Shown piece after piece: positions 8,941-64,000 of a stretch of 64,000 bases of DNA (the first letter of the stretch is position 1; every line of letters starts with the position of its first letter). The stretch lies in NCBI GenBank assembly GCA_039803205.1, contig JBDRYB010000003.1, positions 32,001-96,000 of the forward strand, written 5' to 3'. This DNA is from a candidate division WOR-3 bacterium (lineage in GTDB: Bacteria; Hydrothermota; Hydrothermia; JBDRYB01). Both the position numbers and the translations under genes were made by a program. A model generated the notes under the pieces. It was not told where the DNA came from. It did not search any database and worked only from the letters and a program-made list of their open reading frames with translations.

Positions 8941-10041
8941 ATGCTTAATTTATTCGGCAAAAAGAGAAAAAAGAAGGGCCTGGGTTGGCTGAAGATCTTC
9001 TCCTTCCGGCTCACCGAGAGGGACAAGGACAACCCCTCTGAGCTCATAGATGGATACGAGGGCTTTATATTCGCGTGCGTGAACATCATCGCTTCCCGGG
9101 TCGCGGGCGCGAGGATGAGGCTCTTCGTGAGGGAGGGCGATTCCGAGAGGGAGATAGATGAGCATCCCCTCTTGGAGCTTCTGAGGGAGCCTAACCCCTA
9201 CATGACCCAATACTCTTTCCTATACCTGACCCAGGCCTGGATGGAGCTTGCGGGCAACGCTTATTGGGTAAGGGTCGGTCAGGAGCTCTGGCCACTTCCT
9301 CCCCAGTGGGTCAGGGTCGTTCCCGGCCCGTGGCCGAGGGTCATAGACGGATACATCTACAGCCCTCCCTGGGTCTCCGAGCCAATGGCGTTCTCAGACG
9401 GGGAGGTGATTCACTTCAAGCGCCCGAACCCGCAGGACCCATTTTATTACGGCGCTTCAACCCTCAGAGCGGCTTTCGGCGAGACCGAGTTCTGGCGGCT
9501 TGCTGGAGAATACAGGGCAAAACGCCTTGAGAACGGAGGGGTTCCCCCAGCCGCTATGATAATATCCGAGGAGGCCAACCCTGGGGACATAGACAGGATA
9601 AGGGCGGAGTTTGAGCGCCTTCACAGGGGAACGGCTAACGCAGGGAGGCCGGCCATTCTCCCGCCCGGAACGGATGTTAGGCTCCTGGAGGTCCCGGCTA
9701 TAGACAAGGAGTTCGCGGAGGCCCTCAGGCTCACGAGGGAAAACATCCTCGCCATATTCGGCGTTCCGGGTTCAAAGCTGGGACTGGTTCAGGATGTCAA
9801 TAGGGCGAACGCGGAGGCAAACGACCTCACATTCCTCAACGAGGTCATAAGGCCCCGCCTCCGGTTCCTTGAGGACATACTGAACTCTGAGATAACATAT
9901 CTCTTTGGGGATTCGCTCCTCTTGCGCTTTGATGACCCCCTCCCCAGGGACTGGGAGTTCACGCTCAGAAAGGTTGAGACCCTGGTCACCCTTGGGGTTA
10001 TGAGCGTAGACGAGGCGAGGAGGGAAATGGAGCTGGAGTAG
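8941..10041 (+). CDS. Phage portal protein, HK97 family
   Basis: FACVNIIASRVA, HPLLELLREPNPYMT, LAGNAY, LWPLPP, EVIHFK, G..NAGRPAIL, IFGVP, MSVDEARR motifs; start set to ATG 8941 after GGAGG. Confidence 0.9.
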   Translation: MLNLFGKKRKKKGLGWLKIFSFRLTERDKDNPSELIDGYEGFIFACVNIIASRVAGARMRLFVREGDSEREIDEHPLLELLREPNPYMTQYSFLYLTQAWMELAGNAYWVRVGQELWPLPPQWVRVVPGPWPRVIDGYIYSPPWVSEPMAFSDGEVIHFKRPNPQDPFYYGASTLRAAFGETEFWRLAGEYRAKRLENGGVPPAAMIISEEANPGDIDRIRAEFERLHRGTANAGRPAILPPGTDVRLLEVPAIDKEFAEALRLTRENILAIFGVPGSKLGLVQDVNRANAEANDLTFLNEVIRPRLRFLEDILNSEITYLFGDSLLLRFDDPLPRDWEFTLRKVETLVTLGVMSVDEARREMELE

Positions 10042-10102
10042 GAATTAAAAGCGCGAATCGTGTTAACTTTGTGTCAGATCTGCTTGTATTGTATATCAAG
10101 CT

Positions 10103-11632
10103 ATGTTTGGTATTGGAATCGTATTGTTCTCTGCTCTTTTCGCTAAGACATACGGAGGGACTTACTCGGAGGAAGGCTATTCTGTGATCCAGACCCAAGA
10201 AGGAGACTATATCTCGGTGGGATATGTTGTGGATGGCTATGTTGACTTTTCGGTCATCAGGTTTTCCTCCGATGGTTCTCTCTCTGATGCAAAGAGGTTC
10301 GGCGGGAGCGGTTGGGATGAGGCCTATTCCGTAGCCGCGACTCAAGACGGCGGGTTTGTTGTGGCAGGAGAAACTGGTAGTTTCGGGGTCAGTGGCTTTG
10401 ATTTTCTCGTTATGAGAATGGCTTCTGATGGCTCACTCATTTGGTCCAAGACTTACGGGGCCGCATACATGGAGCACCCATACTCAATAATCCAGAACTC
10501 AGACGGGGGTTATACCGTTGTGGGAGAGACGAACAGCATCGGCGCAGGTTTTTCCGATTTTCTGGTTCTCAGATTGGGATCCGACGGTTCAGTTCTCTGG
10601 GCAAGAACCTTCGGGGGCGAAAACGAAGAGGAGGCTTGGTCTGCAATTGAGACCCCGGATGGAAGGCTTGTTGTCGCGGGATGGACGGATAGCTATGGGG
10701 CTGGCAACGATGATCTGCTAATCCTCAAGCTGAACCCTGACGGCTCCCCCATTTGGACCAAGACCCTGGGTGGCATTGGAGATGAGCGCGCCTTTTCCGT
10801 AGCCCAAGCTCATGATGGCGGATATGTTGTTGCTGGATGGACAGGGAGCTTTGGCGCCGGCGGAACAGATTTCCTGGTCGTAAAGCTCGGCCAGGATGGT
10901 TCGCTCATTTGGGCAAAGACCTTTGGCGGAAACAGAAATGACTGGGCCCAATCCATAGTTGCCACATCCGACGGGGGTTATCTTGTTTCTGGGACGACAT
11001 TCTCCTTTGGGGCTGACTCATCGGATGCCCTGATGATCAAGCTTGGGCCGGATGGCTCACTCATCTGGGCCAGGAGGTTCGGGGGCCAGAGCTATGACTA
11101 TGCTTATTCCTCAACCCAGGCGCGGGACGGGGACTATGTTGTCGTTGGGACAACCTGGAGCTTTGGCGCTGGGGCATGGGATTTTCTCGTTATCAAGATC
11201 GGCCAAAACGGCGAGTATGCGAACTGCGTTCAGGCCTGCTATCCGGTTTCTACCAATGTGAACCCCACGACATCCTCTCCGCTGATGGGCTTCATCTGCA
11301 ATTTGGATGCCTCAAGCCCAACTCTGACACCAACCCCGCTCAATTTGATCGCATACGATATTTGCCCCACCCTGGCCTCTCAGGACACGAAAGGCTCTTC
11401 CGGAGGACCATGTTGCTTCGCTTTTTCGGAAGGCGCGGTGTTTTTCGCTCAGGAGCCGGGGAACCTCAGGCTGTATTCCACGGACGGAAGGCTTATATGC
11501 TGTAGGCACCTAGAAACTGGCTACAACAGGATAACCCTTAAGCCCGGCGTCTATATCTGGAGAGCGAGTTCAGAACCTACATCATCCAATTCAAGGGCAT
11601 GCACGGGAAGAATTGCCATCCCCTCTCGGTAA
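10103..11632 (+). CDS. Secreted beta-propeller protein with T9SS-like C-terminal domain (paralog of the 26-36 kb array)
   Basis: Repeats of W.KTFGG...D.A.S...T.DGG.VVAG.T.SFGAG..DFLV; C-terminal YSTDGRL...LKPGVYIW. Confidence 0.8.
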   Translation: MFGIGIVLFSALFAKTYGGTYSEEGYSVIQTQEGDYISVGYVVDGYVDFSVIRFSSDGSLSDAKRFGGSGWDEAYSVAATQDGGFVVAGETGSFGVSGFDFLVMRMASDGSLIWSKTYGAAYMEHPYSIIQNSDGGYTVVGETNSIGAGFSDFLVLRLGSDGSVLWARTFGGENEEEAWSAIETPDGRLVVAGWTDSYGAGNDDLLILKLNPDGSPIWTKTLGGIGDERAFSVAQAHDGGYVVAGWTGSFGAGGTDFLVVKLGQDGSLIWAKTFGGNRNDWAQSIVATSDGGYLVSGTTFSFGADSSDALMIKLGPDGSLIWARRFGGQSYDYAYSSTQARDGDYVVVGTTWSFGAGAWDFLVIKIGQNGEYANCVQACYPVSTNVNPTTSSPLMGFICNLDASSPTLTPTPLNLIAYDICPTLASQDTKGSSGGPCCFAFSEGAVFFAQEPGNLRLYSTDGRLICCRHLETGYNRITLKPGVYIWRASSEPTSSNSRACTGRIAIPSR

Positions 11633-11693
11633 AAACCGGACACGCCCGTGTGTTCTTGAATTTAACCTGCGTTAAAATTTAACATATTCCCGC

Positions 11694-14465
11694 TTGATAG
11701 AGGCCCTCGGGCCGCTTGAGGAGTTATCCCATCTGGACTCCCGTTGGCCATCCGGGTTCAAGAGCGTTATCCTGGCTCGGATCGCCCGGGAGCGTGGGGG
11801 TGTTTTTTATTCTCCAAAGGAGGACCCAACAGATGTCAAGGAAGAGCTCTCCTCCTTCGGGGTTGCCGCGGTGGGCACTCAAGAGGATTGGAGGGAGGCC
11901 ATTTCCCCTGGCAAGCCTCTCGTGTTCATCGGGCCCACGAGAGACATCCCCCGCACCTTAGAGAAGCTCGATTCCATGAGGTTCACCCGCATAGCGCCGG
12001 GCGCGCGGGTCTCGCCCGAGGACCTGATGCGCGCCCTCTCAGAAGGAGGCCTTGAGAGGGTTGATTTCGTTGAACTACCAGGAGAGTTCTCCAGGCGCGG
12101 CGGGATAATTGACCTTTTCCTTCACTCCCTGGCTTCCCCTGTCAGAATAGAGTTCGTAGGAAACAGGGTTGAGTCCATCCGAGAGTTCTCCGTCGTCACT
12201 CAGAGGTCAACCGGCGCGGCAGACGAGATCTGGGTTCCTGATCCCCGCGGCGCTCCGCTCGGCATCGGAGAATTGGTGCAATTGGGAGAGGAGCGCTCAA
12301 ACCCCTTGCCCTTTGATGTTCAGGCAACTCCGGAATTCAGAGGGGATGTGGCTTTGTTCTACAGCTCAGCAAAAGAACTCGCAGAAAGGGGCTACGAGAT
12401 CAATTTCTTCACCCTTGAGGAGTGGCGTTTCAGGAGGCTGAATGAGGTGGTCCCGTGCAGGTGGATTAAGGGAGAACTCAGGCACGGGTTCATCATCCCC
12501 CACCTCTCTCTCGTCGGAATGAGCTCGGGAGAGATAGTGCAAGTTGAACGCGCGGCTAGGCTTCCCGGCCCGAGGATAGAGAGCATAGAGGCGCTTGAGG
12601 AGGGTGACTATGTGGTTCACATTGATTACGGCATAGGGAGATACGCTGGGCTTGAGAGGGTTGAGATAGGAGGGGGGCTTTACGAGTGCGTGGTCGTTGA
12701 ATACGCTGATGGAAGGCTACTCGTTCCCTCACATGACCTCTCCCGGCTCTCCAGGTATGTTGGGCCAGAGGGTTTTAATCCCCCGCTATCCCAAATATCA
12801 AAACCAACCATGTGGCTCCGGCGGCGCAACCGGGCCGCGGCGGACGCGGCAAGGATAGCGAGAGAATTGGTCTTCACAGCCGCTATAAGGAAATCAAGGA
12901 GAGGCCACGCCTTTGGGCCGGACACCCCGGAGCAACGAGAGCTTGAAATGGCATTCCCATTTCCCGAGACCCCGGATCAGGAAAAGGCGATAGAGGATGT
13001 GAAGAGGGACATGGAATCCCCGAAGGTGATGGAGAGATTGGTCGCGGGCGAGGTCGGTTTCGGAAAGACGGAGGTCGCCCTCAGGGCATCTTTCAAGGCG
13101 GTAATGGATGGGAAGCAGGTTGCCATACTCGTTCCAACTACCCTGCTTGCCCTCCAGCACACCAGGACATTCCAGGAAAGGCTATCCAGGTTCCCAGTGA
13201 GGGTTGAGATGGTCTCGCGGCTGGTCTCCGGGAGGAAAATAAAAGATATCCTACAAGACCTCAAGTCCGGCAAGGTTGATATTGTCATAGGGACGCACAG
13301 GCTCCTTGCGAAGGATGTGGCTTTCAAGGACCTCGGCCTCCTGGTCATTGATGAGGAGCACAGGTTCGGCGTCAGGCAAAAGGAACGCCTGAAACGCCTG
13401 AAGATAACGGTTGATACCCTCCTCATGACAGCGACCCCTATCCCCAGAACGCTTTCCATGGCCCTCGGCAAGATAATGGACATGTCCGTAATTGAGACGC
13501 CGCCCATAGGGCGCCAGGAAACAGAGACATGGGTGGGCGAGTTCTCAGAGCGGGTGGTAAAGAACGCGATAAACCGGGAGCTAAACAGGAACGGTCAGGT
13601 CTTTTACATAAGAAACAGGATAGAAGGCCTCTCCGAGAGGGAAAGGAGCCTCAGGAGGATGTTCCCCGAAGCGAAGATAAGGGCTATTCACGGAAGGCTC
13701 AGGGGAAGAGAAATAGAGCGGGCTTTCCTGGATTTCTACGAGGGCAAGATAGATATACTCCTCTCAACAGCCATAGTTGAGTCCGGAATAGATTTCCCGA
13801 GGGCAAACACCCTTATCGTTGAGCAGGCTGAGCTCTTCGGCCTCTCAGAGCTTCACCAGCTCAGGGGGCGCGTTGGAAGGGGGAGCGTAAAGGCTTATGC
13901 GTTCTTCTTCACTGGAAAGGACATAGATAAAAAGCCGAAGGCAAAGCGCAGGCTCTCGGCTCTTGCCAGATACCACCACATCGGCTCAGGGATGAAGATA
14001 GCCCTGGCTGACCTCTCTATAAGAGGGGGAGGGGACCTCCTCGGCCTGGCTCAACACGGCCACGCGAGGGGTGTGGGATACACCCTTTATTTCAGCCTTA
14101 TAGATGAGGCCATAGAGAGCTTGACTTACGGTGGAACCAGGAGAGAGACCCTTCTTGAGATACACGCCCCCGCGCTCATTCCAGAGGCATACCTGGATGA
14201 TCCGACCCTCAGAATGGCTTATTACACGAGGCTTTCAGAGGCTAGAGCCATCTACGAGATAGACGAGACCGAGGACGAGATGAGGGACAGGTTCGGGCCT
14301 CTGCCGCCCGAGTTGGAAAACCTACTCAACGCTCACAGGGTGAGGTTATGGGCGGGAGAGCGCGGATACGAGAGGGTGATCTTCTCTCCGGATATTGTGC
14401 AGCTCAGACGCGAGGGAGAGGAGGAAACATTGCCGACTGAGGGGATACTGGGAGAGCTTATCTAG
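11694..14465 (+). CDS. mfd: Transcription-repair coupling factor
   Basis: UvrB-homology RGGIIDLF, CarD-like VVHIDYGIGRY, GEVGFGKT, DEEHRFG, TATPIPRT, QLRGRVGR, C-terminal TRCF domain. Confidence 0.93.
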   Translation: MIEALGPLEELSHLDSRWPSGFKSVILARIARERGGVFYSPKEDPTDVKEELSSFGVAAVGTQEDWREAISPGKPLVFIGPTRDIPRTLEKLDSMRFTRIAPGARVSPEDLMRALSEGGLERVDFVELPGEFSRRGGIIDLFLHSLASPVRIEFVGNRVESIREFSVVTQRSTGAADEIWVPDPRGAPLGIGELVQLGEERSNPLPFDVQATPEFRGDVALFYSSAKELAERGYEINFFTLEEWRFRRLNEVVPCRWIKGELRHGFIIPHLSLVGMSSGEIVQVERAARLPGPRIESIEALEEGDYVVHIDYGIGRYAGLERVEIGGGLYECVVVEYADGRLLVPSHDLSRLSRYVGPEGFNPPLSQISKPTMWLRRRNRAAADAARIARELVFTAAIRKSRRGHAFGPDTPEQRELEMAFPFPETPDQEKAIEDVKRDMESPKVMERLVAGEVGFGKTEVALRASFKAVMDGKQVAILVPTTLLALQHTRTFQERLSRFPVRVEMVSRLVSGRKIKDILQDLKSGKVDIVIGTHRLLAKDVAFKDLGLLVIDEEHRFGVRQKERLKRLKITVDTLLMTATPIPRTLSMALGKIMDMSVIETPPIGRQETETWVGEFSERVVKNAINRELNRNGQVFYIRNRIEGLSERERSLRRMFPEAKIRAIHGRLRGREIERAFLDFYEGKIDILLSTAIVESGIDFPRANTLIVEQAELFGLSELHQLRGRVGRGSVKAYAFFFTGKDIDKKPKAKRRLSALARYHHIGSGMKIALADLSIRGGGDLLGLAQHGHARGVGYTLYFSLIDEAIESLTYGGTRRETLLEIHAPALIPEAYLDDPTLRMAYYTRLSEARAIYEIDETEDEMRDRFGPLPPELENLLNAHRVRLWAGERGYERVIFSPDIVQLRREGEEETLPTEGILGELI

Positions 14466-15448: not shown

Positions 15449-15611
15449 AAAAACCTCCTGTGCCTTCATATTATAAAAGCACCAGTTGATCCCGCGCAAT
15501 AGGATCGCCCCCCGGTTTATGATCTCAAAGAAAGCATAAATGAGCCCTCATGGAAGAGCTCAACGAGACCGAGATAATGAAGAGGAACCCGAAGGACACT
15601 GAAACCAGGGA

Positions 15612-17051: not shown

Positions 17052-17069
17052 GAGGCTCTCCTTTTCGTT

Positions 17070-17528: not shown

Positions 17529-17538
17529 GTCAATCCTC

Positions 17539-18498: not shown

Positions 18499-18587
18499 AG
18501 CTTGTAGATTATAGATCAAAAAAGGGGGTGCTTTCAACCCGGGGTAGCCCGAGAACCCACATTTTCCCATGCTGGATATGAGAGGGA

Positions 18588-26187: not shown

Positions 26188-26285
26188 AAACTATAGACCG
26201 GCTCCGGAACCTGCTCACCTCCTATTATGCCGGAGCCGGCCTATTTTTCTTTGAAAACGAAAACAACCTGGAGATTTTATCATGA
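26184..26285 (+). CDS. 33-aa linker ORF / hairpin element (diverged copy)
   Basis: MKTIDRLRNLLTSYYAGAGLFFFENENNLEILS*; ATGA overlap at both ends; stem CCGGCTCCGG/CCGGAGCCGG with CACCTCC in the loop. Confidence 0.55.
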   Translation: MKTIDRLRNLLTSYYAGAGLFFFENENNLEILS

Positions 26286-27820
26286 ACAACTTGCTGTTAG
26301 CTGTCATGGTTTCGCAGAACCTCTTCGCGAAGACCTATGGAGGGACGGGTAAGGAGTATGCCTATTCGGTAGCCAGGACCTCGGATGGCGGATATATAGT
26401 CGCTGGGGGCACGGCCAGCTACGGTGCTGGACAGGATGACTTCCTGGTCATCAAGATCTCGCCCACAGGAACCCCTGAATGGACAAGGACCTTCGGGGGA
26501 ACAAATATGGATGCCGCCTATTCCATAATCCAGACAACCGATGGGGGATATATGGTTGCTGGGGAAACCCGCAGTTTCGTGGCGGGAACCGCTGCTAACA
26601 TTGATTTTCTTGCGCTGAAGATCTCATCCACCGGAAACCCTGAGTGGGCAAGGACCTTTGGAGGAGCAAATGAGGATTTCTGTCGATCCATAATCCAGAC
26701 ATCAGATGGGGGATACGCACTTGTAGGGTTCACCAGAAGCTATGGTGTTGGGCTGGATGACTTTTTGATCATCAAAATCTCGTCTGCTGGGGCCCTTGAA
26801 TGGGCAAAGACATTCGGCGGAACGAATTATGATAATGCCTTCTCCATAGTACAGACCATAGACGGTGGTTATGTCGTTTCGGGTAGCACCATGAGCTTCG
26901 GGGCCGGCTACTGGGACCTTCTCTTGCTAAAGCTGTCGCCCACGGGAACCCTTGAGTGGGCGAGAACCTACGGGGGAGAAAATAATGACTTTACTACCTT
27001 ACCCGTGATACATACCGCTGACAGTGGTTTCATGTTCACGGGGCACACGGAGAGCTTTGGGGCCGGTGAAGCGGATCTGCTTGTCATGGAACTTTCGTCC
27101 ACCGGGGCTCCGGAGTGGACAAGAACCTTCGGAGGAACCGACTTGGATTGCGCTCGCTCTATAACCAGAACCGGGGATGGAGGGTTCGCGCTCGCAGGAT
27201 GGACATTGAGTTTTGGGGCTGGTTCTTGTGATTTCTTCATGATAAAGATTTCGTCCGCAGGAAGCCTTGAATGGGCAAGGACTTTCGGAGGGGAAGGTTG
27301 GGACGATCCCTTCTCTATGATCCAGACTCAGGATGGCGCCTACACGGTTGCAGGATGGACAACGGGCAGTTTTGATGGAAGTGACCCTGGCGATTTCCTT
27401 GTGATCAGGCTTGACCAGAACGGCAATTACCTGGATTGCATTCAGAGCTGTTCTCCTACCACAGGGCCAGCTTCCATTTCAATATCATCCCCTGGCGCGG
27501 ACCTTATTCCCTGTAATCCTTCTATAACCAACCCGAATCCAAGCGTCACGACTCCCGGACTTCAGGTATATGATGTCTGTCCACCCAGTTCTATTGAGGA
27601 GCCAGACAAAGTCCAAACATGGCCCCAGATCATTTGCGTATCTGATATAAGAGGGGTTATTTTCCATGCTTCCGGGGAAATGGAGATAAAGATCTACTCA
27701 TCCGATGGAAGGCTGTTCTGCTCCGAACAACTGCAGAGGGGACAGACCTCCATTCCTCTTGGCCAAGGAGTCTATCTCTGGCAAGCAGGACCCTATAAAG
27801 GAAAGGCTGTTGTAAGATGA
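26282..27820 (+). CDS. Secreted beta-propeller protein with conserved C-terminal domain
   Basis: Repeats of W.RTFGG...D...SI.QT.DGGY...G.T.S.G...DFL; Ser/Pro/Thr linker; ends GVYLWQAGPYKGKAVVR. Confidence 0.85.
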   Translation: MNNLLLAVMVSQNLFAKTYGGTGKEYAYSVARTSDGGYIVAGGTASYGAGQDDFLVIKISPTGTPEWTRTFGGTNMDAAYSIIQTTDGGYMVAGETRSFVAGTAANIDFLALKISSTGNPEWARTFGGANEDFCRSIIQTSDGGYALVGFTRSYGVGLDDFLIIKISSAGALEWAKTFGGTNYDNAFSIVQTIDGGYVVSGSTMSFGAGYWDLLLLKLSPTGTLEWARTYGGENNDFTTLPVIHTADSGFMFTGHTESFGAGEADLLVMELSSTGAPEWTRTFGGTDLDCARSITRTGDGGFALAGWTLSFGAGSCDFFMIKISSAGSLEWARTFGGEGWDDPFSMIQTQDGAYTVAGWTTGSFDGSDPGDFLVIRLDQNGNYLDCIQSCSPTTGPASISISSPGADLIPCNPSITNPNPSVTTPGLQVYDVCPPSSIEEPDKVQTWPQIICVSDIRGVIFHASGEMEIKIYSSDGRLFCSEQLQRGQTSIPLGQGVYLWQAGPYKGKAVVR

Positions 27821-27872
27821 GATTCTCTACACCAGACCAAGAGGCGAGTAGCTTCCGGGATATGCTTTACAA

Positions 27873-29162
27873 TCATTCCCCTGGATTCAGGACGATCGTC
27901 CTCGTATCCACTATATTTCCATGAGATGAGAGGGCCAGGAAGCAAACGCCCTTACCTATGCCATCAAGGCTAATGGAGTGCCTTCCGGGTTCAAGAGACC
28001 AGGTTCTCAGTTCCCTGCCAATAGGATCATAAGCTGTCAGTTGGCCTGCCTTGGTAAGCCTGATTTCAACGGAAACAGTAGAGAGCATAACGATGCTGTT
28101 CTCCTTTGGCCCTGAACTCTCTCCAATCTCAAGGGGAGGGCATCCTCTGTGCGCGTAGTAGAGATCGCCAGACCTGTAATATGCTATCCTGGGGCAGTCA
28201 TCTGAGCCCACCTGAAGGCTCCTGTCTGTCATCCAGTAACCTGCCCATGTATTGGGGTCAGCAACCTCTATCGTCCAAGATGATCCATTCCACACAGCAT
28301 ATTTTAGCCTCTGGTTGGTCACATCGTAGTAGGCTATGTGCGGCCTGTCCTGGGAATCCAGGGCCAAAGAGGTATAACGCCCGACATCGCCCGCGGTGTC
28401 AACCGTCTGTATCTGCCAGGATGAGCCGTTCCAGTAGGCGTATTTGAGGTCCCGCTTGGCCGCTGATGAATCGTAGTAGGATATGTGGGGCCTGTCCTGG
28501 GAGTCAATAGCGATGGATGTCCAGAGGCCAACGGATCCAGCTGTGTCAACCTTCTGGGTCTGCCAGGATGAGCCATTCCAATAGGCGTATTTTAGATCAC
28601 GAGCACTGGCCCCGAAGCTGTAATAGGCTATGTGAGGCCTGTCTTGGGAATCCAGAGCCAAAGAGGTGCAAATCCCCAGTATATCTACCTGCTGTAGCAC
28701 CCATGCCGAGCCGTTCCAGTAGGCATACTGAATTATGCTGTAGCCATTATCAGAATAGGCTATGCACGGTCTATCCAGAGAATTAAGGGCCAGAGATGTC
28801 CAGAGCGTATTCCCTACGGTATCAACAGTCTGTCTCTGCCACGAGGAACCGTTCCAGTAAGCATACTTGAGATCCGAGTTCACGCCGTCTATCCAGTAGC
28901 TGTATGAGATGCACGGCCTATCCTGGGAATCCAGGTCCACAGAGACATAGCCACCAGAGGCGCTCCCTATGGTGTCAACCCTCTGCGTCTGCCACCCTGA
29001 GCCGGCCCATCTCGCGTATTTCACGCCATATGTTGTGAAATCGCAGTAGGCTATGTGCGGCCAGTCCTGAGAGTCCAGAGCCAGGGCCGCGTAGTAGCCA
29101 ACATCTCCAGGCGCGTCCACCTGGAGCCAGCTCCACTGAGCTAAAAAGAGCCATACCATCAT
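27873..29162 (-). CDS. Secreted beta-propeller repeat protein (second type) with C-terminal domain
   Basis: About six repeats of TSLALDSQDRPHIAYYD...LKYAYWNGSSWQ.QTVDT.G; start ATG 29162 after GGAGG. Confidence 0.8.
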   Translation of the reverse strand: MMVWLFLAQWSWLQVDAPGDVGYYAALALDSQDWPHIAYCDFTTYGVKYARWAGSGWQTQRVDTIGSASGGYVSVDLDSQDRPCISYSYWIDGVNSDLKYAYWNGSSWQRQTVDTVGNTLWTSLALNSLDRPCIAYSDNGYSIIQYAYWNGSAWVLQQVDILGICTSLALDSQDRPHIAYYSFGASARDLKYAYWNGSSWQTQKVDTAGSVGLWTSIAIDSQDRPHISYYDSSAAKRDLKYAYWNGSSWQIQTVDTAGDVGRYTSLALDSQDRPHIAYYDVTNQRLKYAVWNGSSWTIEVADPNTWAGYWMTDRSLQVGSDDCPRIAYYRSGDLYYAHRGCPPLEIGESSGPKENSIVMLSTVSVEIRLTKAGQLTAYDPIGRELRTWSLEPGRHSISLDGIGKGVCFLALSSHGNIVDTRTIVLNPGE

Positions 29163-29163
29163 C

Positions 29164-29358
29164 TTAAAAACCTCCTCGTTTAAGGTTTTTGTTTTCAAGG
29201 GAAACACGGGCTGACCGGAGGTCGTTCTGAAGAACGAGCCGTTCCGGCCGATACCCCTGTATTTTCTCGCACAGGGTCGCGGCAAACACGATCATTCCCA
29301 GCATAATCCCAGTATGAATTATCACGAATGGGTTTGCGAGCCTTTCCCTTATATTCAT
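29164..29358 (-). CDS. Extended (64-aa) linker ORF
   Basis: Starts by ATGA overlap with the upstream stop, carries the LENKN / TTGAAAACAAAAAC motif and a GC-rich hairpin with ACCTCC, stops 1 nt before the next ATG. Confidence 0.5.
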   Translation of the reverse strand: MNIRERLANPFVIIHTGIMLGMIVFAATLCEKIQGYRPERLVLQNDLRSARVSLENKNLKRGGF

Positions 29359-30881: not shown

Positions 30882-30979
30882 GTTAAAGCCTCCGTATGGT
30901 TTTTGTTTTCAAAGCAAATGCAGGCCGGCCGGGTTTTAACGGGAGGTGCAGAGATCCCCGGCCGGCCCTTTGTTTTCAT
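30878..30979 (-). CDS. 33-aa linker ORF / hairpin element
   Basis: MKTKGRPGISAPPVKTRPACICFENKNHTEALT*; ATGA overlap at both ends; 11-bp stem GGCCGGCCGGG/CCCGGCCGGCC. Confidence 0.55.
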   Translation of the reverse strand: MKTKGRPGISAPPVKTRPACICFENKNHTEALT

Positions 30980-31057
30980 CTTACCACTGCCTTTCCTTTA
31001 TATGGCCCCGCTTGCCACAGATAGACGCCGGGATCAAGGGGGATGCGGGTTTGGCCC
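30878..31057 (-). repeat. ~180-bp direct repeat unit (3' end of cargo gene plus linker), copy 1
   Basis: Near-identical to 32487-32665 and 34108-34285; the gene-end part also recurs at 29355-29436. Confidence 0.9.
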
Positions 31058-32490: not shown

Positions 32491-32588
32491 GATGAAACCT
32501 CCGTATGGTTTTTGTTTTCAAGGCAAATGTGGGCCGGCCGGGTTTTAACGGGAGGTGCAGAGATTCCCGACCGGCCCTTGGTTTTCAT
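32487..32588 (-). CDS. 33-aa linker ORF / hairpin element
   Basis: MKTKGRSGISAPPVKTRPAHICLENKNHTEVSS*; ATGA overlap at both ends; stem carries a C>T change that keeps a G-U pair. Confidence 0.55.
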   Translation of the reverse strand: MKTKGRSGISAPPVKTRPAHICLENKNHTEVSS

Positions 32589-32665
32589 CTCACAACCGCC
32601 TTTCCTTTATATGGCCCTGCCTGCCATAGATAGACGCCAGAATCAAGGGGGATGCGGGTCTGACC
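32487..32665 (-). repeat. ~180-bp direct repeat unit, copy 2
   Basis: Direct comparison with 30878-31057 and 34108-34285. Confidence 0.9.
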
Positions 32666-53755: not shown

Positions 53756-53760
53756 AATTC

Positions 53761-54660: not shown

Positions 54661-54739
54661 TTGAGAGAAATGATAACTCGCCCTAATGGGGTTGTTCAAC
54701 CCCCTTGTCCCCGAATAAGGGGGCGCACCAGGCCTTACC

Positions 54740-55024
54740 TCAATCGCCGCACTTCAATAATCCCAATAGCCACTCCAAAAGCCTGTCCGCTCCACGCTCA
54801 AGGTCCCTTATCTTTAAGGCTATTTCCGCTCGTTGTGCCATGAGCCTTGAATAGAGAGCGCCCGCGCGAGCATCGCCCTCAAGGGCCTGCTCCTCAATCC
54901 TCCCGAGGACAGCATCAATCCTACTCAGAGTATCCCTCAGAACCCCCACTGGGTCCAGAGGTTCTCCTTCACGAATTCCTCTAGAGCTCGGCATTTCTCT
55001 TCGCCGAAGTGTCTCTTGGCCCAA
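54740..55024 (-). CDS. Small helical protein, possible phage terminase small subunit
   Basis: ALEGDARAGALYSRLMAQRAEI resembles the A..GD..A......RA motif I recall from phage small-terminase-like proteins; start uncertain. Confidence 0.35.
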   Translation of the reverse strand: MGQETLRRREMPSSRGIREGEPLDPVGVLRDTLSRIDAVLGRIEEQALEGDARAGALYSRLMAQRAEIALKIRDLERGADRLLEWLLGLLKCGD

Positions 55025-55146
55025 GCCCAGCTCCGCCTCTCATAGACAATGGCCTCAGCCAGCTCGGTGAGATCCGGCCTCAGCGCTTCAAGCCTGTCCA
55101 GGAGAAGGTTTCCCTTTTCGGCGAGGATGAACCCTTCAGATAGCAT
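54937..55146 (-). CDS. Small protein resembling a degenerate sigma region 4
   Basis: LDRLEALRPDLTELAEAIVYERRSW resembles the L..LP...R......EG.S pattern; start overlaps the end of the upstream sigma-region-2 ORF. Confidence 0.35.
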   Translation of the reverse strand: MLSEGFILAEKGNLLLDRLEALRPDLTELAEAIVYERRSWAWAKRHFGEEKCRALEEFVKENLWTQWGF

Positions 55147-55483
55147 AGTCTTCCTCCAATTCGTCTAAGGACACGAAGATCATTCGCGTCGCCTTTTTCT
55201 TGAGCTTCCAAAGGTGCTTCTTCATCGCGGCAATGTAATATTGCCTGAATTCTCTGGCCTTGCCAGGGGCCCAAGACGACAAGACCTTGAAGAGGAGGAG
55301 CCTGAGCTCCTGGGCCACATCCTCCTGTTCCGTGCCGTCCATGAAGTTAGCTGAGGCTCTCAGGATGTAGCGTTCCAGAAAGGAATGCAGGCGGACAAAG
55401 GCTTCAGGGTCACCCATTTTGGCCTCTATGGCGGCTTTGTCTATTTCCTTGCCAGAGGGGTTCATGTTATTTAGTGAGCCCAT
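55136..55483 (-). CDS. Sigma-70 region 2-like protein (ECF/phage type), lacking region 4
   Basis: AKMGDPEAFVRL...EQEDVAQE...LFKVLSSW...FRQY...VSLDEL; GGAGG RBS. Confidence 0.65.
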   Translation of the reverse strand: MGSLNNMNPSGKEIDKAAIEAKMGDPEAFVRLHSFLERYILRASANFMDGTEQEDVAQELRLLLFKVLSSWAPGKAREFRQYYIAAMKKHLWKLKKKATRMIFVSLDELEEDYAI

Positions 55484-55559
55484 TTTTGTCCTCCGTCGTG
55501 AATAGTGTTGATTTGATCCGGGCTCAGCCCTTGCTTTATGCTTTTGAGGTTCACCATGA

Positions 55560-55599
55560 TCCGTTAAATATTATAACGGAAAACCGTGATGAAGATCAA
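55560..55599 (-). promoter_or_regulatory. Leftward sigma70 promoter overlapped by palindromic operator candidates
   Basis: Minus strand TTGATC-N18-TATAAT; inverted repeats TCCGTTA-N7-TAACGGA (55560-55580) and ACGG-AAAA-CCGT (55576-55587). Confidence 0.65.
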
Positions 55600-55612
55600 G
55601 TAGCTAACTAAT

Positions 55613-56248
55613 ATGCGTGATAAAGGGGAAACGATCGGCGCCCGTATAAAGAGGGCCAGGGAGCACCGGGGCATGTCTCAGCTCAGGCTTGCCAGACAAA
55701 TAGGGGTGCCTTTCCAGCGCATCTCCGAGTGGGAGAGGGGCCTGGTTTCCCCATCCGCTCGTTACCTTAAGGCAATAGCTGATTCGCTTTCCGTTTCATT
55801 GGATTGGCTTCTTTCAGGGATGGGCCCGATGGAGAGGCCTGAAAGAAGCGATGCAATATTCCCTGTGCATCAGGTTCCTGTTTACGGCACGGTCCCAGGG
55901 GGGCCTCCGTATGACCCAGGTGACCCCGGAGTCATGGAGGTAATAGGGGTTCCTGCGGAATACTCGGGAAGGGATGTTTTTGGCCTCGTTGTGAAGGGTG
56001 ATTCCATGTCTCCAACCCTCGTGGATGGGGACAGGGTGCTGGTCGCGAGGGATATTAGGCCCAGAGATGGGCTTATCGTTGTGGTAAAAATGAACCAAGG
56101 CGAATATACCGTCAAGCGCATGAGGAGGCAAGGGGATCTCCTCATACTCATGCCTGATAATCCCAACTTTCAGCCCATTGTTCTTGCCCCTGATGATGAG
56201 GGAGAGATAGTTGGCGTCGTGGTTGAGGTGATAAGGAGGCTATTGTGA
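55613..56248 (+). CDS. CI/LexA-like repressor (XRE HTH plus S24 peptidase)
   Basis: IGARIKRAR..GMSQ..LA..IGV....ISEWERG, VPVYGTVPGG, VKGDSM, TVKR, LMPDNP. Confidence 0.9.
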   Translation: MRDKGETIGARIKRAREHRGMSQLRLARQIGVPFQRISEWERGLVSPSARYLKAIADSLSVSLDWLLSGMGPMERPERSDAIFPVHQVPVYGTVPGGPPYDPGDPGVMEVIGVPAEYSGRDVFGLVVKGDSMSPTLVDGDRVLVARDIRPRDGLIVVVKMNQGEYTVKRMRRQGDLLILMPDNPNFQPIVLAPDDEGEIVGVVVEVIRRLL

Positions 56249-57327
56249 TAAGGGCTGAGATGACAAGATGGCCAGAGGGAAGGACTCCGGCCTTCCTCAT
56301 GATTGACGATGTTGGCGATCTCGTTGTGGGGGATACTCAGGAAGGAGATTGGGGAGGCCTTGGAATAGGCCCAAACTCCACATGGGAGTTCTTCACGGAA
56401 ACATACAGGCGTGCTGTCCCGAGGCTCAGGGCCGTGTTTTTTGTTTCTCCTGGCCAGTTCCTAAACGCGCGCCTCGTGCCGGGCATCAAGATTCAGAGGC
56501 AAGGCAAGATTGTTGAATTGTTGGAGGTAATTGCCAGAGCACGTTGGGCCGAGATAGGTTTTCACGGTATGGATCACACTAGGCTGGATGGGAGGCCGGA
56601 ATGCTCAGGGCTTGAAGACCCAAAAATGTGGCTCGCGAGGGGAAAGTCTGCCCTTGAGGAGCTGACTGGGGCCAAGGTTCTCGGTGGGAAGTGCCCTGGT
56701 TATGAGGGATACGAGCTCGTGGAGAAATACCTCACAGAAGCAGGGTTTCGGTGGTGGGCTGATGCCTGGACACCAGTAAGGGGAGGAAGGGGCTGTTTTC
56801 ACGGGGGAAGAGGCGTTATCACGAACCAGAGGGGGGTGAGATTATTCCCAAGCAACATCGGCGCATACACGGGGCTTTATCGGAGGGGCCGCTCCGTTAT
56901 TGAGAGGCTCTTCATGAAAAGGAGGATGGCCAGACTGTTCGCTAGGGCAAGGTTCCTCGTTGAAAAGGGGATTCCCGTTACCATCCAAACGCACTACGCG
57001 GCGTTGCGCCCCGATGGGGCCAGGCAGGTCTACAACCTATACGATGACAGGCCCTTGCTCCTTCCTCTTCTTACGGGGCTTGACGATCTGGTTTGGTGGG
57101 CTTTGCCAAGAGAGATATGCGATTACCTTGATACCGTTGAATCCATGAGCTTCCTCGTTGATGGCTTTAAGCTGATAATCAACTCTGAGCGGCCGCGCTG
57201 GGATGTCTCGTTTAGGATTCACCCTTGCCCCTCGTATCTCATGGCGCCTGAGGGCTACAGGGTCTATCCGAAAAAAGGGCTCTTCACCTTCCTCCCTAAG
57301 CCTGGGGCATACGAGGCGGTTTTCTAG
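56245..57327 (+). CDS. Polysaccharide deacetylase-like (NodB/CE4 fold) protein
   Basis: LMIDD, EIGFHGMDH metal motif; GTGA overlap with the repressor stop. Confidence 0.65.
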   Translation: MIRAEMTRWPEGRTPAFLMIDDVGDLVVGDTQEGDWGGLGIGPNSTWEFFTETYRRAVPRLRAVFFVSPGQFLNARLVPGIKIQRQGKIVELLEVIARARWAEIGFHGMDHTRLDGRPECSGLEDPKMWLARGKSALEELTGAKVLGGKCPGYEGYELVEKYLTEAGFRWWADAWTPVRGGRGCFHGGRGVITNQRGVRLFPSNIGAYTGLYRRGRSVIERLFMKRRMARLFARARFLVEKGIPVTIQTHYAALRPDGARQVYNLYDDRPLLLPLLTGLDDLVWWALPREICDYLDTVESMSFLVDGFKLIINSERPRWDVSFRIHPCPSYLMAPEGYRVYPKKGLFTFLPKPGAYEAVF

Positions 57328-60224: not shown

Positions 60225-60330
60225 TTAGTTTTATAATTTTAACACGAGACTTCGACCGAAAGCATTCATGTTGCGGGGAACTGCTCAAACTGAATTATAA
60301 TTTAAAGCCTGGTTCTAAGGGAGCAAAACC

Positions 60331-61455
60331 ATGAGAAGGTTATTTGTGCTGTTCTTGTTCTTCTCAGCCTGCGCCCCTAGGCAAGCCGGAAGGGAATCGG
60401 GTTCTGGCCCCCTGAGCGTCATGCCGGAGGATGTCCTCCTTCCCAATCCGGACAGCGTCCTCCGTGAGGCTCAGGACGCCTATAACCGAAAGGACTACCC
60501 GAGAGCGGCCTCAGCCTATCTTGACTATGTTAGCCGCAACAATCAGAACGCTATTGCCCTGTATAATCTCGCGTGCTGTTTCGGGCTTATGGGGGATTCC
60601 ATCAGGGCATCCGCCTTTCTAAGAGCCGCTTGGGACGCTGGATACAGGGACACCCTGCACATTCTGAGAGATCTGGATTTTGAACCGGTCAGGGGATCGC
60701 TGGCTTTCAAGAGCACGATGGATGGGATCATGGCCGAGGCCACCAGGGGAACCGAGGGGAAAAACAAGGTCTACCTCTCCGTTGGAACCCTGCTCCCCTG
60801 CTATGTTGTGGTGCCGGAGGATTACGATGCGCAGGAGCGCTACCCCTTGGTTATTGGCCTCCACGGCTACGGGTCGGACCCAAAGCAGTTCTCAGACCTG
60901 TTCCGGAGACCATACAAAACGGACACAACGAAAAAGTCAATGAAGATCAGCTTCATCTACGCGGTCCCATGCGCGCCCTATCCGGTGAGCCTTGGCGGGA
61001 AGCCCGGCTATTCCTGGACCCCTCCGGAGGGCGAAATAGGCAAAAGGGCTATATGGATGGACGCGGACTACATAACCTCCTTGCCTCGTGAGCTCCTCAA
61101 GTCCTACAACATTGATACCACCCGGGTCTATCTCCTTGGTTTCTCCCAGGGAGCGAGCATGGCATACACAATAGGGCTCAACAACTACAAGCGCTTTAAG
61201 GGGATAATCGCGTTCGCGGGATGGTTTGATACCACAATGGTGTCCCTTGAGTCCATAAGAAAGGCAAAGGCAGAGGGCATGAAGGTATTCATAGCCCACG
61301 GGAAATACGACCAATCGGTGCCGGTGACCGCGAGCATGGGGGCATACAAGTTTCTGAAGGAGATCTATCTTGATGTCTGGATATCGCAGTTTGAGGGCGG
61401 GCACGAGGTTCCGATGGAGACCCTTGAGTTCGCCATAAAGTGGATGGGGTTATGA
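60331..61455 (+). CDS. Lipoprotein with TPR domain and alpha/beta-hydrolase (esterase) domain
   Basis: FSAC lipobox, YNLACC TPR, LHGYG, GFSQG nucleophile elbow, HGKYD, GGHE. Confidence 0.85.
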   Translation: MRRLFVLFLFFSACAPRQAGRESGSGPLSVMPEDVLLPNPDSVLREAQDAYNRKDYPRAASAYLDYVSRNNQNAIALYNLACCFGLMGDSIRASAFLRAAWDAGYRDTLHILRDLDFEPVRGSLAFKSTMDGIMAEATRGTEGKNKVYLSVGTLLPCYVVVPEDYDAQERYPLVIGLHGYGSDPKQFSDLFRRPYKTDTTKKSMKISFIYAVPCAPYPVSLGGKPGYSWTPPEGEIGKRAIWMDADYITSLPRELLKSYNIDTTRVYLLGFSQGASMAYTIGLNNYKRFKGIIAFAGWFDTTMVSLESIRKAKAEGMKVFIAHGKYDQSVPVTASMGAYKFLKEIYLDVWISQFEGGHEVPMETLEFAIKWMGL

Positions 61456-61863
61456 GAGATGTTCTTGCTCACCCCTGCCAGATGCCCCCTTCATTCCCTC
61501 AAAAGCCATTACGAGGAGCCCAGCGCCCCTCATCACATCCGAAGCCGACATCCGTGCGAGCTTCTCCCGGAGCCTCTCAATCCTCCTCCTTGCCCTCCGG
61601 TAATCCGAGCACCTTTTATCCGTTGAGACATCAAGGATGGCCAGGATGTGGACGAGTCGCTCAACCGATGGCTCATCCTCCATAAGGGGAGCGAATGCCT
61701 CCTCAACCGAGCCAAATACCGCCTGTAGCCAGATTAGGGTGAGGGCGGTTGCTGGGCGAACCCTTGCGGGGCCAACCCGACCGAGCTCGCCCCTGAGAAA
61801 ACCCAGGGCCAGGGCCTTCCCCCTTTCTGCCTGAACCTTTGCCTTCTTTATCAGCTCTTTCAT
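61450..61863 (-). CDS. Hypothetical phage-operon protein (tail assembly chaperone position)
   Basis: ATGA-coupled to the upstream gene; helical, 137 aa; assigned by gene order only. Confidence 0.4.
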   Translation of the reverse strand: MKELIKKAKVQAERGKALALGFLRGELGRVGPARVRPATALTLIWLQAVFGSVEEAFAPLMEDEPSVERLVHILAILDVSTDKRCSDYRRARRRIERLREKLARMSASDVMRGAGLLVMAFEGMKGASGRGEQEHLS

Positions 61864-62567
61864 TCTGAGACTATCCTCTCGCGTGTTATGAACCCATCCT
61901 CGTCAGAGAGAAGGATAAAACTGAGCTTCATTAGGGTTTCCCTCCCTGAGAGGAATTCCTCTGACCAAGAGGAGAGGACAGCCCTCCTCGCCTCTATTAC
62001 CCTGAATGCCTGGCCCTCGGAAGACGAACGCCCCAAGGCAGGGAAAACGAGGATGAGGGCAAAATCTCTGCAAAGATAATAACGATCCTCATCCTCCCCG
62101 TATGCGTATGAAACCAAAACCTCCTGTCCGGCGTCCTCCTCCGCAAAATAAAGAGCCCTCTCACCGGGGTCATATGAAAAGAAACCAGCCGAAGGGCGTT
62201 CTGCCATATCAAAAACATCCCCTGAGGGAGTCTCCACGATCAGGCTCTCCGGAGCCGGCTCATCCGGAAGCCTCAGCTTGAAAGGGGACTCATCGGGAAC
62301 CGTGAGCCTCAGGTCCCTCTTGAATGCCCTGGCCCCTCCGGCTCCGGTGATCGGGTTTGGGTCAAAGATCACCCTAGCAACGCACGAGACGGTTCCGCTA
62401 CCAGGGCCAGGCACAGCCGCGACGGGGAACTCATCCCTTTCGGAGTAAATGGGCCTCATAGAGTAATCAAGAAGGATGCTGACCTCCTCTAGATCAGCTA
62501 TCTTCAGAGCTTGTCTCCCGCGGAGAAGGAGTTCCCCAACGCCTCCACTGTAATACCTTCTCTTCAC
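61860..62567 (-). CDS. Putative phage tail tube protein
   Basis: Beta-rich, N-terminal YSGGVGEL...IADLEEVSI.LDYS...FPVA pattern; follows the neck genes. Confidence 0.45.
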   Translation of the reverse strand: MKRRYYSGGVGELLLRGRQALKIADLEEVSILLDYSMRPIYSERDEFPVAAVPGPGSGTVSCVARVIFDPNPITGAGGARAFKRDLRLTVPDESPFKLRLPDEPAPESLIVETPSGDVFDMAERPSAGFFSYDPGERALYFAEEDAGQEVLVSYAYGEDEDRYYLCRDFALILVFPALGRSSSEGQAFRVIEARRAVLSSWSEEFLSGRETLMKLSFILLSDEDGFITRERIVSE

Positions 62568-62576
62568 GATACCCCC

Positions 62577-62921
62577 TTAGAAAAAGCACCTCGCTGTGAG
62601 CCTCACCACAGCCCTTTCTCCCTCCCCCAAGGAAGTAGCGGAACACTCCGATAGCCGCATCCCTAGCCCAGCTGAGAGCGCCTGTCTTGCGTTCTCTGCA
62701 ACGGCCATTGCATCAGAAAGGCAGGAATCTACAGCGATCAGCTCAAACCTGAGGAGGCCGTGCTCGTGGTCCGCTGAGCAAAGGAAGACCCTCTCCCACC
62801 TGGCCGTGTAATAGAGGCCTGGTTCTCTCGGCTCGCTCATGCTGGAATCCAGCGGTATTGCGGGACACCCTTGATTCTCAAGGATCTCAAGCACCTCTTG
62901 GATGTAGTCAACCAGCCTCAC
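62577..62921 (-). CDS. Putative tail terminator / tail completion protein
   Basis: 114 aa alpha/beta pattern (RFELIAV...DAMAVAENARQAL) and position in the head-tail operon. Confidence 0.45.
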   Translation of the reverse strand: MRLVDYIQEVLEILENQGCPAIPLDSSMSEPREPGLYYTARWERVFLCSADHEHGLLRFELIAVDSCLSDAMAVAENARQALSAGLGMRLSECSATSLGEGERAVVRLTARCFF

Positions 62922-63253
62922 CTTATCTCAAACCTCCCATTGTATTCCTCAAGCAGAAGCTCCCAGTGATCCGTCCCGAATCCGGAAAACCGCCTCACCT
63001 CTTTTACCGCAAAAGCCCTCCCCGCGCGTTCAACCCAGCGTGGTTCCTCGCTTAGGGGAGGGGTGATAGCGATGGCGCGCTCTCTCGTTTCACGGCCGTA
63101 GGGGTCATCCTCTGCCCTAAAGGAGGCCCTTCCCCAACCGCATTGAACCCTGTTCCCTCTCGTGAAGATAGCGAGTTCAGAGCCGAGGGCATCCCTTTCG
63201 CCTACTAGATGAAGGATGTAAATGCTGTCCCTCATGAGAAATCCAAAGGCCAT
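62918..63253 (-). CDS. Putative head-closure / head-tail adaptor protein
   Basis: ERDALG, GRAFAVKEV, HWELLL patterns typical of SPP1 gp16-like proteins; TGATG coupling at 63253. Confidence 0.55.
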   Translation of the reverse strand: MAFGFLMRDSIYILHLVGERDALGSELAIFTRGNRVQCGWGRASFRAEDDPYGRETRERAIAITPPLSEEPRWVERAGRAFAVKEVRRFSGFGTDHWELLLEEYNGRFEIR

Positions 63254-63774
63254 CAGAGAAACCTCCTCCTGTGCGCGTATCTTATGAGGACCCACCGGAC
63301 ATCATCCGAGAGAAGAGGGTTTTCCCGGAAATCTATGCCAGTCTCTCCGGATCTGAATCCGGAGATGTCCGGCCTCGGCCCCGCTAGGATCCTCGCGGCA
63401 ACTCGGGCCACTGTTCTGGCAACATCATCCGGGACAGGATCCTTCGGATCGTTGTAGTAATACACCACATCAACAGGCCTTCCGGTCTCAACCCTCATCT
63501 CGCCTATGCGTTGATTGAGCCACTCCCAGGCAACATCATTGCCCTTGTCATCCTTGACCGAGACTACGCTGTGAACAGGCCAGTGGCTGAGAAGCACCCA
63601 GAACCTGATGGGATTGTGCCTCTCGGAAGCCGGTTCAGCCCTGAAATGCCTGCCCGTGAAGGCATCAATGATGTCGGAGGCCTGGCATATAGCGAGGCTT
63701 ATCTCCTCATCGGTCCTATCCTGCTCCCCCAAGAGTCCCAACTCGGCCCTCACATCGCTTATTTCGCAATACAT
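63253..63774 (-). CDS. Phage head-tail connector (gp6/gp15-like)
   Basis: YCEISDVRAELG, AI.QASDIIDAFTGRHF, WPVHSVVSV, VPDDV, WVLIRY. Confidence 0.75.
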   Translation of the reverse strand: MYCEISDVRAELGLLGEQDRTDEEISLAICQASDIIDAFTGRHFRAEPASERHNPIRFWVLLSHWPVHSVVSVKDDKGNDVAWEWLNQRIGEMRVETGRPVDVVYYYNDPKDPVPDDVARTVARVAARILAGPRPDISGFRSGETGIDFRENPLLSDDVRWVLIRYAHRRRFL

Positions 63775-63792
63775 GGCTTTTTCCCTTTAATT

Positions 63793-63813
63793 AAAAGGGG
63801 CCTTTCGGCCCCT
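63793..63813 (-). terminator. Intrinsic terminator after the capsid gene
   Basis: Minus strand AGGGGCC-GAAA-GGCCCCT followed by a T run. Confidence 0.8.
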
Positions 63814-63817
63814 CATC

Positions 63818-64000
63818 TCACTGGCCAAGGTTCTCTGCCTTGACAAAGGGGGTTATCCCTCCATCCGTGTCCCAGGCCAGCTTGCCATCTATCCGCTCCG
63901 TTATCGTTATCAGAACCTCATCCTTGAGAGCGAGGTCCTCGTCCTCCGTTATGACCCTGAGCTCAAGCCCGTTCCGTTCAAAGATGTGGTAGAACCTCAT
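63818..64000 (-). CDS. C-terminus of a probable HK97-fold major capsid protein (runs off window)
   Basis: KDEVLITITERIDGKLAW....ITPFVK resembles HK97-family capsid C-termini; followed by a terminator and the head-tail connector. Confidence 0.6.
   Translation of the reverse strand: MRFYHIFERNGLELRVITEDEDLALKDEVLITITERIDGKLAWDTDGGITPFVKAENLGQ

Follow-up and report, generated by a model that had tools for sequence, protein, structure and literature searches.

The genes of gene transfer agents (GTAs) typically occupy several loci, some of them of one or two genes, that resemble remnant prophages; these agents have arisen several times from different phages, are firmly known from few lineages and are hard to separate from dead prophages (PMC11841831, in part). 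In RcGTA, a contiguous head-tail cluster extends from the terminase to the tail, with accessory loci elsewhere (drawn in part from PMC9638019), and the activator GafA, which has tentative sigma-like DNA-binding regions and is a possible alternative sigma factor, switches on this core cluster together with remote loci for the head spike, the tail fibre and lysis (PMC9638019, in part). The loci of phage origin in BaGTA are tied together by an antitermination device (bioRxiv 10.1101/2024.11.20.624540, in part). Here we examine a stretch of 64,000 nucleotides from a candidate division WOR-3 bacterium (the window, that is, bases 32001-96000 of contig C3, 144,884 bp; C-numbers denote contigs of the window's genome), in which an earlier note, made from the DNA letters, had recognized three islands of phage morphogenesis genes and proposed a host-maintained GTA-like system. 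The genome is a metagenome assembly of 2.32 Mb in 50 contigs, 95.9% complete and 0.05% contaminated, the public sequencing runs listed as containing the window DNA are hot-spring metagenomes with no RNA run among them, and the comparison set comprises three species in total, namely, this one and the two other species of its genus, G001 and G002. We find that the three islands are part of at least six units that bear one and the same motif and that, to judge by their sequences, probably encode a domesticated, co-regulated, GTA-like (viriform) particle system of the host lineage.

The units are a six-gene tail-tip-like operon, a lone portal gene, a regulatory switch, a head-tube operon, the large terminase (TerL) gene with an adjacent LTXXQ gene, and a gene for a 118-aa protein. 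Five of these are distributed over ~141 kb once contigs C5 and C3 are joined: on C3, the portal is at 40941, the switch at 86740-89327, the head-tube operon at 93450-97352 and TerL at 138757. The sixth is on contig C4. The last ~80 bases of C5 (113.7 kb) recur within the first ~130 bases of C3 (144.9 kb), so the two contigs can be joined and the tail-tip operon (C5:112382 to C3:4953), which lies 36 kb before the portal, is contiguous with the other units. HK97-like heads have usual sizes and, if the head capacity presumed from them applies, five units spread over ~141 kb are unlikely to be packable as one phage genome.

The motif was found by comparing the DNA upstream of the portal, TerL, prohead protease and sigma-like genes in the three species, and consists of CACTATT with a G at +7, followed by a Shine-Dalgarno box or, in the case of TerL, by the GTG start codon itself. 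The genome contains 113 copies of CACTATT and 36 of CACTATT-N6-G, and eight of the latter are located 0-21 nt before a start codon, compared to ~0.85 expected by chance from the share of the genome that occupies such positions. These eight copies precede the genes for the portal, TerL, the sigma-like protein, the protease, the tail operon, the 118-aa protein, a Rep protein and the host nrfH, the nrfH copy being the number that chance predicts. The G at +7 is present in 17 of 17 aligned instances from the three species, which share no common -35 box, and one-mismatch variants of the motif, 24 of which are at gene starts, occur at about the chance level and show no pattern. In the congeners, the motif precedes each unit whose contig extends far enough to include it; at the portal gene, the layout is the same in G002, and G001 has the variant AATATT. 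As a separate observation, a stretch of ~40 nt before the TerL motif is doubled in G001 (contig C199), with the two copies ~120 nt apart and the upstream one ending in GAATATT, not CACTATT. The Rep gene with its CACTATT-N6-G belongs to a group at C11:48206-51138 in which a tRNA-Ser, a tyrosine integrase and a RepO-like gene stand together. Neither DNA nor protein searches found this element in G001 or G002, and hence it is not part of the conserved set; it may be a strain-specific integrative element that responds to the same regulator.

The portal ORF (open reading frame; 8899-10041) matches the Pfam family Phage_portal (PF04860) over the full profile with an E value of 5.5e-61, as the sole match to this family in the genome, and also matches phrog_2662 (1.9e-64); the arrangement of promoter and Shine-Dalgarno box places its start at 8941, in agreement with the earlier note. 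Its flanking genes are all of the host (TrmFO/GidA, a PD40/WD40 protein, a DUF5122 propeller and Mfd), and the gene is intact and alone, as had been proposed. The head-tube operon is encoded on the minus strand and extends from window position 61450 to beyond 64000, and C3:93001-113000 was read for it. It encodes, in this order, a prohead protease, an HK97-family capsid protein, an adaptor and ORFs of 125, 114, 235 and 137 aa, of which the capsid and protease genes with their CACTATT promoter extend past the window to C3:97378. The capsid protein (PF05065, 6.2e-45; phrog_10, 1.3e-49) and the protease (PF04586, 1.6e-6; phrog_80, 4e-25), whose gene adjoins the capsid gene past base 64000, together with the portal make the HK97-like head module complete by family (Phage_portal PF04860, S78 protease PF04586, HK97-fold capsid PF05065).

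The reading of this operon as running from capsid to chaperone stands in part. The capsid protein, of whose gene the last 183 nt lie in the window, and the adaptor are identified by family; the closure, terminator and chaperone labels of the 125-, 114- and 137-aa ORFs are positional, with no family match in the Pfam and PHROG searches; and the 235-aa tube-like protein is a lead, its nearest Atlas clusters being viral, some of them YomU_Tube, at scores of 0.96-0.97, with no Pfam, PHROG or PDB sequence match. PDB sequence searches with the adaptor and the tube gave nothing meaningful. Upstream of the operon are genes for a methyltransferase, rubrerythrin, SpoIID and chorismate synthase, and downstream of the 137-aa ORF there is no tape measure gene, a convergent esterase gene abutting it instead.

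The genome contains one full terminase gene of the Terminase_6N plus 6C type (C3:138757-140046; phrog_2, 6.6e-42), 41 kb past the head operon, flanked by MglA/MglB and two-component genes and, at its other end, by LTXXQ and NFACT genes. Its structure matches are the terminases of Thermus phage and T4, and the other TerL families searched, PF03354 and PF20441, have no match in the genome. In all three species, an LTXXQ/Metal_resist (Spy/CpxP-like) gene (here C3:140111-140536) follows TerL although the other surroundings differ, and this gene may be part of the terminase transcription unit. The 215-aa ORF just upstream of TerL was considered as the small terminase and rejected, since its N-terminus is of the lipoprotein type, its promoter contains a TATAAT box and its location is different in G001 and G002. 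Thus, of the missing parts for which the earlier note had proposed a genome-wide search, a lone TerL and a protease beside the capsid were found, the tape measure and holin are represented by weak candidates, and there is no endolysin match.

The tail-tip-like operon encodes proteins of 227 aa, 129 aa, 86 aa (a coiled coil and a transmembrane segment, with a weak holin match, phrog_689, 1.3e-4), 367 aa (weak LamG and PKD matches), 1054 aa (no match) and 195 aa (phrog_1128, 2.8e-19). These proteins evolve fast, with 42-62% identity between species, as would be typical of host-recognition parts, and this divergence, the promoter of the operon and the viral nearest neighbours suggest tail-tip roles, with no single decisive test among these indications. 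Homologues of the 227-, 115- and 1054-aa proteins are 52-97% identical and contain no Pfam domains; five of them are labelled WOR-3 or Hydrothermia by source. The clusters formed by homologues of the 227- and 115-aa proteins suggest that some 8-12 additional populations of the genus exist. The 118-aa protein on contig C4 has a weak tape-measure match (phrog_9696, E 0.005).

The regulatory switch (window 54740-57327) consists of a repressor gene divergent from three small conserved ORFs (Table 1). The repressor is 78-79% identical in the two congeners, and the genome encodes no other S24 protein. The palindrome between the divergent genes is kept in three of three species, and of its three strict matches genome-wide only this one is at gene starts; a unique S24 repressor with an operator at no other gene start suggests that the switch is specific to this system and is not a global SOS regulator. 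The first of the three small ORFs encodes a 115-aa protein for which the Pfam matches are below threshold (HTH_16, 0.003, and Sigma70_r2, 0.014, over the same stretch). A profile of its 12 homologues, which are 69-84% identical, two of them labelled candidate division WOR-3 by source, retrieved ECF (extracytoplasmic function) sigma factors encoded by other members of the phylum. An hhalign comparison of this profile with one ECF sigma factor, a protein that carries Sigma70_r2 and Sigma70_r4_2, gave a probability of 93% and an E value of 2.9e-7 over 93 columns, all in region 2. The 115-aa protein stops where region 2 stops, and region 4, which recognizes the -35 box, is not present. These comparisons fit a sigma factor with region 2 only, and a sigma factor so reduced is suited to a promoter that consists of a -10 box alone. 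The AlphaFold model of this protein has four helices and a mean confidence (pLDDT) of 69. The second ORF (69 aa) was tried as the missing sigma region 4 and rejected (hhalign probability 0.1%), whereas the small-terminase label given to the third (94 aa) by the earlier note found no support, with no family match and a best E value of 0.067. The repressor with its HTH_3 and Peptidase_S24 domains and the sigma-like character of the 115-aa protein were otherwise read correctly.

All three islands of the window are embedded among ordinary host genes, as a Pfam scan of the flanks shows (aldolase, GNAT, polysaccharide synthesis and esterase genes near the window modules, in addition to those named above), and both the GC content and the GC content of third codon positions (GC3) of the phage genes are inside the host range. 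Among 58 ORFs of the window that were compared to Pfam and, where unexplained, to PHROGs, there is no integrase, replication or lysis gene. These results bear out the corresponding points of the earlier note.

The distribution of the system is narrow. The portal is present in four of 41 related genomes, namely, those of the three species of the genus (100, 88 and 86% identity) and one genome of another family (G030; 31%), in which TerL directly precedes the portal in an ordinary prophage order. The portal and the 115-aa protein, the candidate mini-sigma, have close orthologues in three of 272 genomes of the phylum, all from this genus and covering three of its three species. All six units, including the LTXXQ gene next to TerL, have intact counterparts in both congeners, and the portal, at 86-88% identity to its orthologues, is the most conserved gene of the system. 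The host neighbours of the units differ among the species: in G001, the portal is next to the NFACT gene that adjoins TerL in the window's genome, and in G002, it is among genes that are spread over four other contigs of that genome. Across the three species, whose proteins are 65-95% identical, gene order is broken every few genes. The host genes are equally shuffled, so that rearrangement is a property of the genus, and the unusually high rearrangement rate probably caused the scattering of the units. Searches beyond these genomes were largely negative: a portal-alignment profile gave one distant match in genome contigs, IMG/VR contained no match to the mini-sigma, tube or capsid, and matches in isolate phage genomes did not exceed 31% identity. 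Independently of this system, in three genomes of one other family and two genera (G246:C58, G229:C21, G244:C112), a portal-like region (E 1e-34 to 1e-39) is contained in frames of 662-673 aa, which may represent a portal fused to another domain that recurs across genera.

Selection was gauged by pN/pS, the ratio of the nonsynonymous to the synonymous proportion of differences (Nei-Gojobori), for 26 system pairs and 70 host pairs from the fetched loci, with host pairs of less than 100 codons dropped. The median pS of the system genes, 0.670, is close to that of the host genes, 0.637 (p 0.09), which implies that the phage-derived genes have diverged for as long as the host genes. Values of pN/pS for the system genes range from 0.10 to 0.55 and the compared ORFs are all intact in every species, a state that, at such divergence, is incompatible with neutral decay. 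The head core (portal, TerL, protease, capsid and adaptor) has a median pN/pS of 0.179, with 0.10-0.13 for the portal and 0.23 for TerL (host median 0.21).

The assembly was examined through contigs from four runs of one study, with even depth over window positions 6001-13000. One contig of 39 kb spans all of this interval, one of 10.7 kb spans 6001-11696, and contigs from two runs of a variant strain connect the portal with the host gene downstream of it; at island borders, the contigs over the interval showed neither joints nor loose ends. Two of the four runs are possibly the source of the window DNA, and the three species come from separate assemblies. Together, these contigs and assemblies rule against misassembly as the cause of the dispersal. 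The earlier note had named misassembly, relatives that lack these genes or carry them in contiguous prophages, and dN/dS near 1 as outcomes at odds with a host-maintained GTA-like system; none of these was seen, both congeners having split units and the head core being constrained.

The following scenario would account for these observations. An HK97-like tailed phage would have entered the lineage before the three known species separated, and genome rearrangement would have cut it into at least six transcription units among host genes, each of which would have retained a private -10-type promoter, CACTATT, with transcription starting 7 nt downstream at the G. The mini-sigma would read these promoters, and the operator of the repressor would cover the ordinary TATAAT promoter of the mini-sigma gene. 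Once DNA damage or some other signal inactivated the repressor, the mini-sigma would be made, would boost its own gene via its own CACTATT box and would then induce the scattered units together. The T4-type terminase would fill the heads through the portal, short tails would be joined, and particles would be released. The motif and the conserved switch would be compatible with co-ordinated expression of the units under cellular control.

The likeness to RcGTA (including CcGTA) is in an HK97-type head-tail system located on the host chromosome at several loci, a dedicated sigma-like activator for these loci (here the candidate mini-sigma), vertical inheritance and purifying selection. The best sequence matches among solved structures are the RcGTA proteins, namely, Rcc01684 for the portal (E 1.5e-17) and Rcc01687 for the capsid (E 7.3e-9), a relationship at the level of distant families. 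In RcGTA, however, the head-tail genes are contiguous, whereas here even the portal and TerL are single-gene loci, with distances of 41-52 kb between these two and the head operon. The tube is of another type, the sigma factor consists of region 2 only and is not GafA, the repressor is of the CI/LexA type in place of CtrA or quorum sensing, and the phylum is a different one. With no contiguous cluster and a different tube, regulator and phylum, an independent origin is the natural reading. In this respect, the system resembles BaGTA, VSH-1, Dd1 and VTA, which are independent domestications of tailed phages with a dedicated transcriptional device, although no run-off replication module or antiterminator was seen here, the device being the shared promoter and the candidate mini-sigma. 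The T4 protein gp55 is a truncated sigma factor that reads the -10-only late promoter. The parallel with T4 lies in the pairing of a sigma-family protein without region 4 with promoters of morphogenesis genes that have a conserved extended -10 element and no -35 box; the motif differs from that of the T4 late system, and no gp33- or clamp-like co-activator was recognised.

Several observations weigh against a domesticated and co-regulated particle system. Family matches are lacking for four of the nine genes of the head-tube operon and for most genes of the tail-tip operon. For the 227-aa protein, the structure model is poor (pLDDT 52.6, with only the C-terminal beta domain confident); Atlas matches of this protein, at 0.79, are too low for use, and PDB sequence searches with it and with the 1054-aa protein gave nothing meaningful. 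A search of the genome, which is 95.9% complete, gave no match to tape measure family PF10145, the 118-aa candidate being weak; neither a small terminase nor an endolysin was identified in the genome, and the holin-like match is weak as well. Fold searches did not place the mini-sigma: Foldseek gave nothing at E <= 0.001, with region 2 of SigC at E 1.2, and the VIA matches had Z <= 8.6, the noise level of helical bundles. That this protein reads the CACTATT motif is suggested by their co-occurrence. The system genes are somewhat less constrained than host genes (median pN/pS of 0.277 and 0.211, respectively; p 0.002), the Jukes-Cantor omega values (0.055-0.067 for the portal, 0.094 for the capsid, 0.10 for TerL) are rough because dS is saturated, and with three species only, a test of gene trees against the species tree has no power.

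Part of these observations would be expected of inert debris of an old prophage, scattered but not yet eroded: prophage remnants are common, the tape measure, small terminase and endolysin are missing or unrecognised, and the system genes are, on average, slightly less constrained. Such debris appears improbable, given that synonymous sites are saturated (pS ~0.67), yet the compared ORFs are intact with every pN/pS value well short of neutrality, and that the promoter motif is conserved before the units in three species, even single genes having kept their promoters after moving. Still less credible, and in our view very improbable, is an artefact, in the form of a misassembled intact prophage, or else a live mobile satellite that depends on a helper phage. 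The fragmentary nature of a 50-contig metagenome assembly leaves room for the artefact, but three independent assemblies join phage genes to host genes, and the portal is contained together with its flanks, at even depth and with no loose ends, in the 39-kb contig and in contigs of three further runs. A satellite might be suspected from the integrase and Rep element beside tRNA-Ser, which bears the same motif; this element, however, is not in G001 or G002, and there is no close relative in the phage or IMG/VR collections searched. A cf-PICI, the satellite that comes closest, is a contiguous island with integrase and replication genes but without tail genes that moves with a helper phage. Like cf-PICI and defective prophages such as PBSX, the present system has chromosomal head and packaging genes that cannot make a complete infectious phage alone, but those are contiguous islands, whereas its genes are scattered; tube and tail-tip-like genes are present, and there is no integrase beside them.

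A domesticated GTA-like system thus accounts best for the conserved units, which raises the question of what its particles would do. The signs of domestication fit equally well a particle kept for a purpose other than gene transfer, such as killing or defence, DNA release or phage interference; the function of GTAs is itself debated (PMC11841831, in part), and the tail-tip genes evolve fast, as do receptor-binding parts in an arms race. Nevertheless, we regard this alternative as unlikely, since the portal is the most conserved gene and TerL is close to the host median, which argues that DNA packaging itself is under selection. Moreover, tailocin-type killing particles have neither head nor terminase. 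Within the domesticated, GTA-like system that we favour, the more specific proposal of a true GTA can be put forward tentatively, as a possibility that we rather doubt than endorse: it would be a GTA of independent origin, with no earlier example from candidate phylum WOR-3 or from a hot-spring lineage, and its fragmentation, with the portal and TerL each standing alone, would exceed that of all described GTAs. A region-2-only sigma factor and a -10-only promoter before each fragment would hold it together, much as in the late genes of T4. As a corollary, the tRNA-Ser integrase/Rep element would be timing its replication to the induction of the GTA and riding in its particles.

No report of a GTA in WOR-3, Hydrothermae, Stahlbacteria or Hydrothermia was found in the literature searched, and the main text of a survey of 181 WOR-3 genomes does not mention phage, prophage, virus, capsid or gene transfer (PMC12542636). 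One motif on scattered units, a dedicated mini-sigma and conservation amid rearrangement together offer a checkable genomic signature of domestication. If the interpretation holds, an uncultured thermophilic phylum would be added to the lineages with GTA-like gene exchange, a natural regulon would have been held together after extreme fragmentation, and a shared -10-only motif before orphan phage structural genes would serve as a search rule in other lineages.

Table 1. Features of the phage-derived units within the window (positions are those of the 64,000-nt stretch)
Feature	Position	Strand	Basis or remark
Promoter-like motif CACTATT-N6-G, portal gene	8919..8932	+	GGAGGAG and ATG at 8941 downstream
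HK97-type portal, single-gene locus	8941..10041	+	PF04860, E 5.5e-61
Conserved 94-aa helical ORF, third in sigma-like operon	54740..55024	-	77-83% identical in G001 and G002
Conserved 69-aa ORF, second in sigma-like operon	54937..55146	-	Conserved
115-aa putative sigma factor reduced to region 2, candidate activator of CACTATT promoters	55136..55483	-	hhalign
CACTATT-N6-G before sigma-like gene	55494..55507	-	Kept in G001 and G002; putative self-activation
Palindrome CCGTTA-N7-TAACGG over TATAAT box, candidate operator	55561..55579	.	Between divergent repressor and sigma-like genes
CI/LexA-type self-cleaving repressor	55613..56248	+	HTH_3 and Peptidase_S24; phrog_4, 3.1e-46
360-aa ORF, start overlaps repressor stop	56245..57327	+	66-67% identical in G001 and G002; no family match
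137-aa helical ORF, last in operon, tail-assembly-chaperone position	61450..61863	-	Position alone; 68-72% identical in G001 and G002
235-aa tail tube-like protein	61860..62567	-	Atlas lead; 62% identical in G001 and G002
114-aa ORF in neck/tail-terminator position	62577..62921	-	Position alone; 68-71% identical in G001 and G002
125-aa ORF in head-closure position	62918..63295	-	Position alone; 62% identical in G002
Head-tail adaptor	63253..63774	-	phrog_442, 2.1e-12; phrog_2377, 7.8e-11; 72% identical in G002
Capsid gene, 3' end (183 nt in window)	63818..64000	-	PF05065; remainder past window

Apart from the phage-derived units, the window contains five paralogous genes for DUF5122 beta-propeller proteins of ~505 aa (26282-34111 and 10103-11632), and several proteins encoded near these genes have type IX secretion sorting domains.

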